Shown here: piece by piece, positions 8,960 through 12,979 of the stretch
Numbering within the stretch: the stretch's first letter is position 1
Layout: each line of letters starts with the position of its first letter
Source: a virus
Taxonomy: Duplodnaviria; Heunggongvirae; Uroviricota; Caudoviricetes
Length of the DNA: 21,128 nucleotides
Direction: 5' to 3' (one strand)
Virus record (IMG/VR): IMGVR_UViG_2534682222_000006
Location: 1 to 21,128 of that record
Position numbers and translations under genes: made by a program
The notes under the pieces: generated by a model
What the model was told of the DNA's origin: nothing
Database searches by the model: none
The model's input: the letters and a program-made list of their open reading frames with translations, nothing else

Positions 8960-9697
8960 ATGGCCACACCAAACCCGCTGGCACCAACAAAAGGTGCTGG
9001 TACCACCCTCTGGGTTTACACCGGAACTGGTGATCCATACGCCAATCCGCTTTCAGACGTTGACTGGCTGCGCCTGGCAAAGATTAAAGACCTGCAGCCC
9101 GGAGAACTGACAGCTGAATCGGAAGATGACACCTACATCGATGATGAGAATGCCGACTGGACATCAACGATGCAGGGGCAGAAATCAGCCGGTGAAACAA
9201 ACCTGACGCTCGCATGGATGCCGGAGGATTCCGGTCAGCAGGACCTGGTGAACTGGTTCGATGAAGGCACCGTGAAGGGGTATAAAATCAAATATCCGAA
9301 TGGTGTTGTCGATGTCTTTAAGGGCTGGGTGAGCAGTCTCGGCAAGACCATCTCGTCTAAAGAGGTCATGACCCGCACGGCAAAAATCACCAACAATGGC
9401 AAACCATCGCTGGCCGAAGACAGTGGTACCGCGCCGATTGCCGTTACGGGGATCAGCCTGGATAAATCCACGGCGGCTGTGGCTGTCGCGGCCACGACGC
9501 AACTGGTTGTTTCTGTCCTGCCAGCAAGTGCTTCAGATAAGTCTTTCCGCGTAGCCAGTTCTGATCCGTCAAAAGCAACGGTCACCGTCAGCGGCAATAC
9601 CCTGACTGTTACCGGCGTGGCGGCAGGCACCGTCGAGATCATCGTAATGAGCAATGACGGTAACTTTGTGGCGATCTGCAAAGTCACTGTTTCCTGA
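8960..9697 (+). CDS. V: major tail tube protein gpV with C-terminal Ig-like (Big_2-type) domain
   Basis: 245 aa (lambda V 246 aa); C-terminal about 85 aa has Ig-like character ([63 protein letters not shown]); GAGGA RBS. Confidence 0.92.
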
Positions 9698-9733
9698 TAA
9701 CCGGGGCGAAAGCCCCGTTCCCCCGGAGTAATT

Positions 9734-10156
9734 ATGTTTCTAAAGAGCGAGCTGCTTGAAAGTAACGGCAGCAGCGTCACATTGTTCCAGCTGTCGGCGC
9801 TGCAGCGTATTGAATACCTCGAATACCTGAAACAACTTGAGGCGGTTGAAGCTGGTGATTTTCAGGCTGCCATTACCCTTACCGTGAAGAGTGGAGCATA
9901 TCTGGTGGCAATGTCACTCTGGCATGGCCACGCGCTTAAAGGATCGCAGGGAGAAAACGCGGCGGCGGAAGTGGAGCAGATTCAGGATGAGGTCATGCAG
10001 ACATGGCCGACCGAACTTGTTGCCGAAGCCGAATATAAGGTGAAACTCCTGTCCGGGATGATTGCGCCGGTCACTGATGACCAGGCTGAGCCCGGTGAAG
10101 AACGTAATGAACCCGATGAACCTGTTACTGCGGAAAAGCCCTCGCCAGTGAGCTGA
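9734..10156 (+). CDS. G: tail assembly chaperone gpG
   Basis: 140 aa, same length as lambda G, with acidic C-terminus; followed by an overlapping -1-frame ORF (T) as in lambda. Confidence 0.9.
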   Translation: MFLKSELLESNGSSVTLFQLSALQRIEYLEYLKQLEAVEAGDFQAAITLTVKSGAYLVAMSLWHGHALKGSQGENAAAEVEQIQDEVMQTWPTELVAEAEYKVKLLSGMIAPVTDDQAEPGEERNEPDEPVTAEKPSPVS

Positions 10157-10164
10157 AGTTTGCC

Positions 10165-10485
10165 ATGAAACTGGCGCGTGAGTTCGGTCGCCCGGACTGG
10201 CGTGCCATGCTTGCTGGCATGTCCTCAACGGAATACGGCGACTGGAAAATCTTCTACCAGGACAATTACTTTCATGATGCGCAGCTGGACGCACATTTCT
10301 CCGGCTTGCTCTACACCATCTCAACCCTGTTTTTTGCCGATCCGGAGTTAACCCCGGACAGTTTCAGCATTCTTTCCTCTGCACCGGAAGCCATCGACAT
10401 CGATGATCCGGATGACGATACGCTGATGGCGAAGGCTGCAGGTATTTCAGGAGGCGTGCGCTATGGCCCAGACGGCAGTGGGTGA
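10165..10485 (+). CDS. T: tail assembly chaperone T segment, expected to be expressed only as a G-T fusion via -1 programmed frameshift near 10132-10138
   Basis: ORF in the -1 frame relative to G; the T frame is open from 10120 (stop TGA at 10117-10119) and overlaps the last 12 codons of G; candidate slip site G GAA AAG at 10132-10138 at the position where lambda has G GGA AAG. Coordinates are those of the ORF track; the real coding segment begins at the shift site. Confidence 0.8.
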   Translation: MKLAREFGRPDWRAMLAGMSSTEYGDWKIFYQDNYFHDAQLDAHFSGLLYTISTLFFADPELTPDSFSILSSAPEAIDIDDPDDDTLMAKAAGISGGVRYGPDGSG

Positions 10486-12979
10486 TCTGGTCGTTAACCT
10501 TGACGTTAACTCGACGAAATTTAACGAGCAGCTTAACTACGTCAAAAAAGAATTAAAGCAGACTGGCAGCGCGGCGAACGACGAAGCGCTACGGATCCAG
10601 CAGTCCTTTAGCCGCCAGGAGAACGCCGCGCGCAAGGCGGGTATTTCAATAGGCCAGTATAACGCAGCAATGCGTATGCTTCCGGCGCAGTTTACTGACG
10701 TGGCCACGCAGCTGGCGGGTGGGCAGAACCCCTGGCTGATTCTGCTTCAGCAGGGCGGTCAGGTTAAGGACTCCTTTGGCGGGATCATTCCGACATTCCG
10801 GGCGTTGCTGGGGACGATTTCCCCGTTGATGGTCGGCATTGGTGCATTGTCCGTTGCAACGGGCGCGTTGTTCTATGCCTGGTACCAGGGCTCTTCCACT
10901 CTGTCTGATTTCAACAAAACGCTGGTACTGTCGGGGAACACAGCCGGACTGACAGCTGACCGCATGCTGGCACTGGCGCGGAACGGACAGGCAGCGGGGC
11001 TAACGTTCAACCAGACCAGTGAAGCCCTGACCGAGCTTATCAATGCAGGTGTGCGTACTGGCTCGCGCTTTGATGAAATGAGCCAGGCGGTGGCGCGGTT
11101 TACTGATGCCTCCGGCGTGCCGGTGGAGAAAGTCGCTGCAGCCTACGGCAAGCTCGCAACTGACCCGACATCGGGCCTGATCGCGATGGCCCAGCAGTTC
11201 CATAACGTTACCGCAGAACAGATTGCCCATGTGGCGCAGCTGCAGCGTGCCGGTGATGAGGCTGGCGCACTGCAGGCGGCTAACGAGGCGGCTACAGCCG
11301 GATTCAACGATCAGACCAAAGCCATCCGCGACAATATGGGGACGATAGAGTCTTCAGCGGACTCCCTGAAGCGCGCCTTCAAGTCGATGTGGGATGCAGC
11401 CCTCGATATTGGCCGACCTGACACCGCGCAGGAGATGGTGGCAAAAGCCGAAGCCGCGTTCAAAAAAGCTGATGAAATCTGGAACCTGCGTAAAGGTGAC
11501 CGATATGTCAATGATGAGGCTCGCGCCCGATTCTGGAATGACCGCGAAACGGCCAGGCTTGCGCTGGATATGGCGCAGCAGCAGGCGGGAATTGCCAGGG
11601 CGAACGAAGAGAATGCATCGCGCGAAGCGGCTGCGGAATCGGATCGCCAGAAGTATGCTGCGCAGGCACAGGCAAACTATGCCAAAACGCAGACGGCACT
11701 GGAGAAATACACGGCCAGGCAGAGCGAGCTCAACAAGGCGCTGAAAGAGGGGCGGATCCTCCAGGCTGACTACAACATCAACCTGGCTGCCGCGAAAAAA
11801 GAGTACGAAGACACCCTTAAAAAGCCGAAGAAGACCCCGGCAATCAGAACCCCCGCAGGTGCCCGTGCCACCGATACGGCCAGTGCCCAGACGCTGGAGC
11901 TACAGACACAGCTGCGCACCCTGCAGGAGCATAAGAGCATCAATGACACCATCAGCCAGCAGCGTCAGGAGCTGTGGCGTCAGCAGTCCCGCTTTACGGT
12001 TCTGGAAGAGGCCGCGAAGACCCGAACGCTTTCTGCTGAGGAAAAATCCCTGCTGGCCAGTAAAAGTGAGGTGCTTTCCCGTGCGGAGCTGAATGCGAAG
12101 CTCGGCGATCAGATAGTGGCGCAGGAGCGGCTTAATCGCCTGCAGGATACGTCCCAAAAATACGTCACGCAGATCGGCGAGAAAACCCGAGCCCTTGCGG
12201 AAAGTGCTGGTATGAGCAGTCGTGCAGCACAACGTCGCAATGAAGAGGCCCAGCTTCTTCAGGGCTGGAAAAATGGTGGTGGTTCGGAGAACGATGCTGG
12301 TTATCAGAATGAGCTGCAGGCGCTGCAGGCGTATTACGCCGAGCAGGATAAGCTGCGGGACGACTGGCAGTCCGGAGCCAAATCCGCATGGGCAGATTAT
12401 GTTGATTCTGCTTCAGATGCTTATGGCCAGATGAAGTCGGCTGCCACCAGTGCGTTTGATGGCATCGGGCAAAATATGGCTGACATGCTGACGCGCGGAA
12501 AGGCTGACTGGGCTGACTTCACCCGCTCCACGCTCTCCATGCTGACACAGATCCTGCTGAAACAGGCGATGGTAGGCTTAGTGGATTCAGCATCAACCGC
12601 GCTGGGATTTGCAGGTGGCGGTTATACCGGTTCAGGCGGGAAATATGAACCCGCAGGTGTCGTTCACCGTGGCGAATTTGTTTTCACCAAAGAGGCTACC
12701 AGCCGGATCGGCGTCGGCAATCTTTACCGGATGATGAAAGGCTATGCCACGGGAGGGTATGTCGGGGGCGGTGGTACAGGTCCCGCTGCAGCACCTTTCG
12801 GGGTGAGCGTGTACGCGCCGGTGACGGTCGAGAATGCTTCCGGTAACGCACAGCAGCAAAACGACGGAGACAGGCTGGGTAAGGCGTATCAGCAGGTGAT
12901 TAACAAATCTGTCAACGAGGGTATCGCCAGGGCAATCCAGCCCGGTGGGCTTATCTGGAATGCGACCAATCGCAGGTAA
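10463..12979 (+). CDS. H: tail tape measure protein gpH
   Basis: 838 aa (lambda H 853 aa); long Ala/Gln/Glu-rich helical central region, hydrophobic segment, Gly-rich C-terminal region; AGGAGG RBS; overlaps T 3' end. Confidence 0.93.
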   Translation: MAQTAVGDLVVNLDVNSTKFNEQLNYVKKELKQTGSAANDEALRIQQSFSRQENAARKAGISIGQYNAAMRMLPAQFTDVATQLAGGQNPWLILLQQGGQVKDSFGGIIPTFRALLGTISPLMVGIGALSVATGALFYAWYQGSSTLSDFNKTLVLSGNTAGLTADRMLALARNGQAAGLTFNQTSEALTELINAGVRTGSRFDEMSQAVARFTDASGVPVEKVAAAYGKLATDPTSGLIAMAQQFHNVTAEQIAHVAQLQRAGDEAGALQAANEAATAGFNDQTKAIRDNMGTIESSADSLKRAFKSMWDAALDIGRPDTAQEMVAKAEAAFKKADEIWNLRKGDRYVNDEARARFWNDRETARLALDMAQQQAGIARANEENASREAAAESDRQKYAAQAQANYAKTQTALEKYTARQSELNKALKEGRILQADYNINLAAAKKEYEDTLKKPKKTPAIRTPAGARATDTASAQTLELQTQLRTLQEHKSINDTISQQRQELWRQQSRFTVLEEAAKTRTLSAEEKSLLASKSEVLSRAELNAKLGDQIVAQERLNRLQDTSQKYVTQIGEKTRALAESAGMSSRAAQRRNEEAQLLQGWKNGGGSENDAGYQNELQALQAYYAEQDKLRDDWQSGAKSAWADYVDSASDAYGQMKSAATSAFDGIGQNMADMLTRGKADWADFTRSTLSMLTQILLKQAMVGLVDSASTALGFAGGGYTGSGGKYEPAGVVHRGEFVFTKEATSRIGVGNLYRMMKGYATGGYVGGGGTGPAAAPFGVSVYAPVTVENASGNAQQQNDGDRLGKAYQQVINKSVNEGIARAIQPGGLIWNATNRR

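Follow-up and report, generated by a model that had tools for sequence, protein, structure and literature searches.

Programmed -1 frameshifting between the tail genes G and T of phage lambda takes place at the heptamer G_GGA_AAG (Levin, Hendrix and Casjens 1993; Xu, Hendrix and Duda 2004, 2013, 2014; these studies as related in PMC5009743). The lambda shift occurs at about 4% (PMC3296357) and depends on thiolation of tRNA-Lys (PMC5009743), and a G:GT ratio near 30:1 is needed (PMC5009743, PMC3296357).

A heptamer differing from that of lambda, GGAAAAG, is annotated in two further phages. In the N15 record (AF064539), positions 10027-10033, which read GGAAAAG, are marked by a misc_feature as "slippery sequence for -1 translational frameshift", and gene 15 is labelled "downstream half of translational frameshift product". 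In phage LLS (PQ299149), a "minus-one programmed translational frameshift site GGAAAAG" was annotated together with a joined CDS. The GGAAAAG frameshift site is accordingly an already known feature, and an instance of the G-T frameshift that is well known and conserved among long-tailed phages.

Several bacterial shift sites share the A-site half of these heptamers. At CGA_AAG of Bacillus subtilis cdd and of IS1222, tRNA-Lys re-pairs from AAG to AAA and P-site re-pairing is imperfect or absent. Of the tetramers studied by Sharma et al. (2014), A_AAG performed best, with 5.6% shifting when the IS3 pseudoknot was present and background levels without it (PMC4066793).

Identity of the locus

The window, by which we mean the whole stretch of 21,128 nucleotides that was analysed (IMG/VR record IMGVR_UViG_2534682222_000006), contains the tail genes of a lambdoid E. 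coli prophage of the N15/mEp237 kind. The genes at the junction are as follows.

8960-9697, plus strand: major tail tube gene (V homologue), directly 5' of G; Pfam PF16461 Phage_TTP_12 with C-terminal Big_2
9734-10156, plus strand: gene G, tail assembly chaperone, zero-frame product of 140 aa; ORF list and translation
10138-10485, plus strand: T segment in the -1 frame, 115 aa (ALASELKF...GPDGSG) and stop; translation, read from GCC 10138-10140 after the putative shift
10463-12979, plus strand: tape measure gene (H homologue), directly 3' of T; Pfam PF06791 TMP_2 and PF09718 Tape_meas_lam_C

G begins at ATG 9734 and ends at TGA 10154-10156. Its product matched Pfam PF06894 Phage_TAC_2, the family of the lambda tail assembly chaperone G, over the full length (E = 6.5e-52), and the homologue is named G or gp14 in the records of mEp237, HK225 and N15. 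The ORF in the T frame matched Pfam PF06223 Phage_tail_T, minor tail protein T (E = 1.7e-12). The order is thus V-G-T-H, with two overlapping ORFs between the tail tube and tape measure genes, and the start of the tape measure gene overlaps the end of T. The C-terminal Big_2 domain of the major tail protein (8960-9697) is an Ig-like domain covering residues 161-242, like that of lambda gpV.

Over 821 bases round the shift site, identity to the window was 98.1% in mEp237, 92.8% in N15 and 91.7% in HK225, and prophages of the E. coli strains ECCRA-119 and YZMc10-2 were 99.6% identical to the window, as chromosomal copies. The G/T type of the window was present in 31 of 5426 complete E. coli genomes. 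N15 (genes 14 and 15, AF064539), mEp237, HK225 and LLS have the same genes in the same order, G/T DNA that is 92-98% identical, an identical GGAAAAG and almost identical flanks, and they show no difference of substance; the approximately 80 bases round the heptamer are almost invariant among N15, mEp237, HK225 and the window. The window is a prophage copy on an E. coli chromosome; the N15 prophage, with the same structural module, is a linear plasmid. We also observed a GC-rich hairpin, CGGGGC-GAAA-GCCCCG, at 9702-9717, in the gap that separates genes V and G. Its N15 counterpart is annotated as a putative rho-independent terminator; the hairpin of the window is followed by TTCCCCC with no T run and was not called by a terminator scan.

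Reading frames and the slippery heptamer

The frames were then compared over the end of G, where the following two features were located.

10120-10156, plus strand: G/T overlap in which the zero and -1 frames are both open; bounded by the T-frame stop 10117-10119 and the G stop 10154-10156
10132-10138, plus strand: slippery heptamer G_GAA_AAG, the probable -1 shift site; sequence, N15 and LLS annotation, and conservation

The last stop in the -1 frame is TGA 10117-10119, from which point the frame is open (10120) up to the stop at 10483-10485. The overlap consists of 34 nt of sense codons and the G stop, about 12 G codons, as the original prediction had stated in holding that T is open only from 10120 and overlaps the last 12 codons of G. 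In the zero frame, the end of G reads GCG GAA AAG CCC TCG CCA GTG AGC TGA, and only 12 nt separate the opening of the T frame from the heptamer. The window of 21 kb has three copies of GGAAAAG, about as many as chance would give (3.05 expected); the sole copy on the plus strand falls inside the 34-nt overlap and in the correct register. No other X_XXY_YYZ heptamer or Z_ZZN tetramer was found in frame within the overlap, in agreement with the earlier proposal that G GAA AAG is the only A-rich candidate slip site. The heptamer is not a strict X_XXY_YYZ site, as XXX is GGA; it is one that allows near-cognate re-pairing, with a G·U pair at the middle position of the P-site codon. This departure is common to N15 and most relatives.

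From these data, we infer that a -1 shift at G_GAA_AAG 10132-10138, with two tRNAs slipping, joins G to T, and assign this reading a probability of about 85%. Most ribosomes would end at the G stop 10154-10156 and give the 140-aa chaperone G, and a small fraction would move one base back on G_GAA_AAG (10132-10138). In this step, tRNA-Lys (anticodon mnm5s2U-U-U) would re-pair from AAG to AAA, and tRNA-Glu (mnm5s2U-U-C) would re-pair from GAA to GGA, keeping G-C at position 1, forming G·U in the middle and pairing A-U at position 3. Translation in the T frame would resume at GCC 10138, to give a 250-aa G-T fusion with the junction between ...PVTAEK and ALASELKF.... By analogy with lambda, the fusion would form the link between tape measure protein and tail tube subunit and would be made at a fixed low ratio to G.

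Indeed, when the conceptual 250-aa fusion, with base 10138 re-read, was aligned with the lambda-type gpGT of phage 434, a single HSP of 53% identity ran through the junction with no gap, pairing PVTAEK and ALASEL of the window with PVSAGK and VFDGEL of phage 434. At the aligned position the lambda-type phage 434 has GCG GGA AAG, which bears out the expected one-base difference from the lambda heptamer. Taken together, the gene families, the frames, the conserved heptamer and the collinear fusion support the proposal that T is made as a G-T fusion by -1 frameshifting.

Homologous junctions in related phages

Homologous loci were collected from annotated phages, from one genome per species and from IMG/VR, giving 153 loci, and in each the heptamer was read 14 codons upstream of the conserved ARE(F/M)xRxDW motif. 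The sample is biased to relatives of the query, the IMG/VR part being the best 80 matches to it. The G/T junction alignment among lambdoid relatives, which had been suggested with the original prediction, placed a heptamer at the homologous position with the following counts.

GGAAAAG: 125 of 153 loci
GGGAAAG: 22 of 153 loci
GGCAAAA: 2 of 153 loci
GGGAAAA: 2 of 153 loci
AAAAAAG: 1 of 153 loci
AGAAAAG: 1 of 153 loci

G_GAA_AAG is the commonest shift site among the sampled relatives, and G_GGA_AAG of lambda is a minority form. GGAAAAG was also found where T is no more than 36-44% identical to that of the window, namely in Gifsy-2, cdtI and Providencia phages. The heptamer had been regarded as a variant, and it does differ from that of lambda; it is not new, being already annotated in N15 and LLS and forming the majority in this sample. 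Thus the observation is confirmed and its interpretation is correct, but the feature is ordinary.

The species-level collection held 40 loci with GGAAAAG and 20 with GGGAAAG. Most of the latter have a lambda-type junction and come from assemblies of unrelated bacteria at about 1x coverage; such junctions are almost certainly lambda DNA contamination. The loci concerned (L029-L041, L045, L057, L065 and L075, all genome contigs and often short) are in assemblies labelled Neobacillus, Oceanobacillus, Kitasatospora, Shewanella, Leeuwenhoekiella, Chromatium, Paenibacillus, Enterococcus and others.

Depending on the locus, the heptamer is preceded by 3 to 138 nt of open T frame and followed by the G stop at a distance of 0, 3 or 15 nt. 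What all the overlap windows have in common is the heptamer itself and the 3 nt in front of it. The rare variants were G_GCA_AAA followed by TAG in Kluyvera genomosp. 1 and Ewingella (L070:701-710 and L071:701-710), G_GGA_AAA followed by TAG in Providencia rustigianii (L072:701-710), G_GGA_AAA at L143:698-704, A_GAA_AAG at L102:698-704 and A_AAA_AAG in phage ASU11 (L008:598-604). The invariant core among them is A_AAR.

Slippage by one or two tRNAs

Among the 96 distinct sequences, positions 4-6 of the heptamer were AAA in every case and position 7 was G in 92. The resulting A_AAG core is where the single tRNA-Lys of E. coli slips. Position 1, which is the synonymous third base of the preceding codon, was G in 94 of the 96 with an entropy of 0.15 bit; the five upstream third-codon positions had 1.3-1.8 bit. 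The preceding codon itself varied in the distinct GGAAAAG sequences (GCG 51, CCG 15, CTG 15, GTG 3, TTG 1 and ACG 1), and codons ending in G make up only 30-59% for these amino acids in the window's own genes. Conservation of the G beyond coding need points to selection at the nucleotide level for P-site re-pairing. As tRNA-Glu needs the leading G to form the first-position G-C pair after moving from GAA to GGA, two-tRNA slippage with a middle G·U is favoured, and with it the earlier suggestion that the P-site tRNA re-pairs from GAA to GGA through a middle-position mismatch or wobble. Since the leading G is under nucleotide-level selection, this pattern suggests that a G·U at the middle position, formed when tRNA-Glu re-pairs, can be tolerated in the cell.

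The same product would be obtained if tRNA-Lys alone slipped on A_AAG 10135-10138, while in the A site or, with the following codon not yet decoded, in the P site, GAA and the leading G being irrelevant. AAA at positions 4-6 is indeed the sole fully invariant part in the 96 distinct sequences, and A_AAG is the best E. coli tetramer, reaching 5.6% with a strong pseudoknot; tetramers nevertheless remain at background without a strong stimulator (PMC4066793), and the window has no strongly supported one. Furthermore, three rare relatives, A_GAA_AAG (L102) and G_GCA_AAA (L070 and L071), would re-pair poorly in the P site, so that the shift may be able to do without P-site re-pairing. Several distant relatives have the G stop right after AAG or AAA (GAA AAG TAG), where a P-site slip before a slowly read stop is plausible. 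Because of these rare relatives and of the G stop directly after AAG, slippage by tRNA-Lys only is a live rival for part of the family. It leaves unexplained the near-invariant synonymous G at position 1, and as the explanation for the window we consider it quite unlikely. Two-tRNA slippage remains the preferred reading.

An extra A could also be put into the mRNA by RNA polymerase slipping on the A run, in place of any ribosomal slip. The heptamer does have a run of four A; this is far too short, and a G that is conserved at position 1 and preferred at position 7 (92 of 96) fits tRNA re-pairing instead. Productive transcriptional slippage in bacteria requires runs of about 7-9 or more identical bases. 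Polymerase slippage was rejected on run length and not on frame, as one added A would give the T frame, and its probability is negligible.

Translation of T

In mEp237, HK225 and RefSeq, T is given as a separate CDS from an ATG, which implies that T might be made alone and that the frameshift is unneeded. A T-frame ATG does exist in the window at 10165, and several records start a separate T CDS there. The codon at this position was ATG in only 31 of the 96 distinct homologues and CTG in 48, and no AGGAGG-like Shine-Dalgarno sequence precedes ATG 10165 (GTGAGCTGAAGTTTGCC ATG). Upstream of it, the T-frame residues Glu (10150-10152) and Phe (10159-10161) were invariant in seven diverse homologues, and columns T28/T29, the TT of the Phe codon, were invariant in the 96 sequences; the tail of the G frame varies between relatives in both sequence and length. 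In addition, RefSeq itself marks the stand-alone T as partial, and T of lambda is known to be produced only as a fusion (PMC5009743). Independent initiation at ATG 10165 was rejected, the ATG being unconserved, the upstream residues invariant and a ribosome binding site not obvious; we regard it as very improbable.

T is annotated in RefSeq and several phage records as a separate or partial gene, yet what counts biologically is almost certainly the G-T fusion of 250 aa that arises at GGAAAAG. In the RefSeq record NZ_CP029242.1 (L156:666-980), T is a separate partial pseudogene CDS from the ATG equivalent to 10165. The stand-alone ORF of mEp237 and HK225 is called 'tail assembly protein GT', and the fusion is absent from those records.

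Shift efficiency and candidate stimulators

In a reconstituted E. coli system without stimulators, Peng et al. used AUG GAA AAG as a 'less slippery' control for G_GGA_AAG; it yielded mainly the zero-frame product at all EF-G concentrations, unlike G_GGA_AAG (PMC6924986). Under these conditions G_GAA_AAG is much less slippery than the lambda site (PMC6924986). The statement that the efficiency of G_GAA_AAG may differ from that of lambda is reasonable, and the in vitro data agree with it. The dataset of Bock et al. (2019) is without second-position changes, and no measurement of frameshifting on GGAAAAG in phage was found in the searchable literature. The negative control in which 'only one tRNA can slip' in vitro (PMC6924986) is the commonest natural G-T site in the sampled enterobacterial lambda-like phages.

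The window has no Shine-Dalgarno-like sequence 6-17 nt upstream of the heptamer, where it reads TGAACCTGTTACTGC. Stimulated -1 signals such as those of IS911, IS3 and dnaX combine a heptamer with a downstream structure, for which a start 5-8 nt past the heptamer was taken as the expected spacing. Downstream of the heptamer in the window, one structure was predicted.

10144-10218, plus strand: candidate stimulatory three-way-junction RNA fold; predicted, MFE and z-scores

The predicted outer stem pairs 10144-10153 with 10209-10218, beginning 5 nt after the heptamer, and would enclose two hairpins (10157-10161/10168-10172 and 10173-10187/10192-10206). Folding of 10139-10240 gave an MFE of -46.4 kcal/mol, with z = -3.52 relative to dinucleotide shuffles. 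When synonymous codons were resampled, z was -2.46 for the window and ranged from -3.7 to +1.1 by relative, lying near zero in Kluyvera and Atlantibacter relatives. In the aligned relatives 78% of cells were paired, compared with 25-42% in slid controls; in the pair-count test, double substitutions were no commoner than with partners slid by 1-3 columns. A few changes were compensatory: at 10147/10215, A-U was replaced by G-C (Ser-to-Gly together with the synonymous change GCU-to-GCC) in the lambda group, Atlantibacter/Leclercia and Entomohabitans, and Entomohabitans also had A-U in place of G-C at 10144/10218. RNAalifold on all 96 sequences returned essentially no structure common to the family; in the closer subfamily, default scoring gave the inner hairpin only, and the outer stem appeared only with RIBOSUM scoring. 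Synonymous sites showed no suppression, the entropy being 0.92 in 10157-10218 and 0.77 in 10219-10281, and an Rfam scan of 9900-10500 returned only a sub-threshold hammerhead match (E = 0.8, chance). We consider it possible that the predicted downstream fold is a stimulator; the evidence of selection on it is mixed, and we do not claim this role.

Two arrangements were recognised among the relatives, although the split is confounded by phylogeny. Most relatives, the window among them, are without an upstream Shine-Dalgarno-like element; they have a potential outer stem, and 15 nt lie between the heptamer and the G stop. In the cdtI/Gifsy-2-type relatives (L010, L011, L053, L055, L059-L061, L066, L067 and others, whose heptamer is at locus position 598 or 701), GAGG, which was seen at this place in no other relatives, occupies -14 to -11 with a spacing of 10 nt, the outer stem is absent, and G stops one codon past the heptamer; the GAGG and the near stop may be an alternative set of stimulators. 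It is conceivable, if rather doubtful, that G_GAA_AAG is intrinsically poor and is brought to the few-percent level by lineage-specific signals, namely a long-range stem (10144-10153 with 10209-10218) in the N15/LLS/lambda type, to which the window belongs, and GAGG with a near stop in the cdtI/Gifsy-2 type. If this were true, the 'stimulator-free' lambda G-T frameshift would have conserved and interchangeable stimulators.

Comparison with other shift sites

The window and lambda share homologous G and T genes, the order V-G-T-H, a slip site 15 nt before the G stop and the A-site event in which tRNA-Lys would move from AAG to AAA. They differ in the P-site codon, which is GGA (Gly) in lambda and GAA (Glu) in the window. 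On re-pairing, the G·U would therefore be at the middle codon position in the window, whereas it is at the wobble position in lambda, and mnm5s2U34 would be present on both slipping tRNAs in the window but on one in lambda. Because both slipping tRNAs carry mnm5s2U34, phages with GGAAAAG may exceed lambda in their sensitivity to the 2-thiouridine pathway of the host.

The A_AAG tetramer and hexanucleotide sites resemble the window in relying on the movement of tRNA-Lys from AAG to AAA. A_AAG and CGA_AAG sites depend on strong stimulators, either Shine-Dalgarno-like sequences or pseudoknots, whereas the window is without a Shine-Dalgarno-like sequence 6-17 nt upstream and its fold is putative. 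The dnaX site of E. coli, A_AAA_AAG, has the same A-site codon and tRNA as the window; dnaX has an upstream Shine-Dalgarno-like sequence and a downstream hairpin, and the window is without the upstream element. The spacing of the dnaX Shine-Dalgarno-like sequence is 10 nt, as is that of GAGG in cdtI and Gifsy-2. The dnaX shift amounts to about 50-80%, compared with a few percent in G-T systems. Tolerance of a middle mismatch in the P site is also found at G_GUU_UUU in cardioviruses (2B*) and arteriviruses (nsp2TF), which has the form X_XYY_YYZ. These viral sites operate on eukaryotic ribosomes, use protein trans-activators and are U-rich rather than A-rich, and are analogues only.

The lambda heptamer G_GGA_AAG itself is present in the window at 2678-2684, in frame (ATG GGA AAG, encoding M-G-K) within a 68-aa gpW-like ORF at 2622-2828. 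A -1 shift there would add 29 out-of-frame residues before an early stop. GGGAAAG occurs four times in the window, which is at the chance level (2.9 expected), so that this copy is probably incidental.
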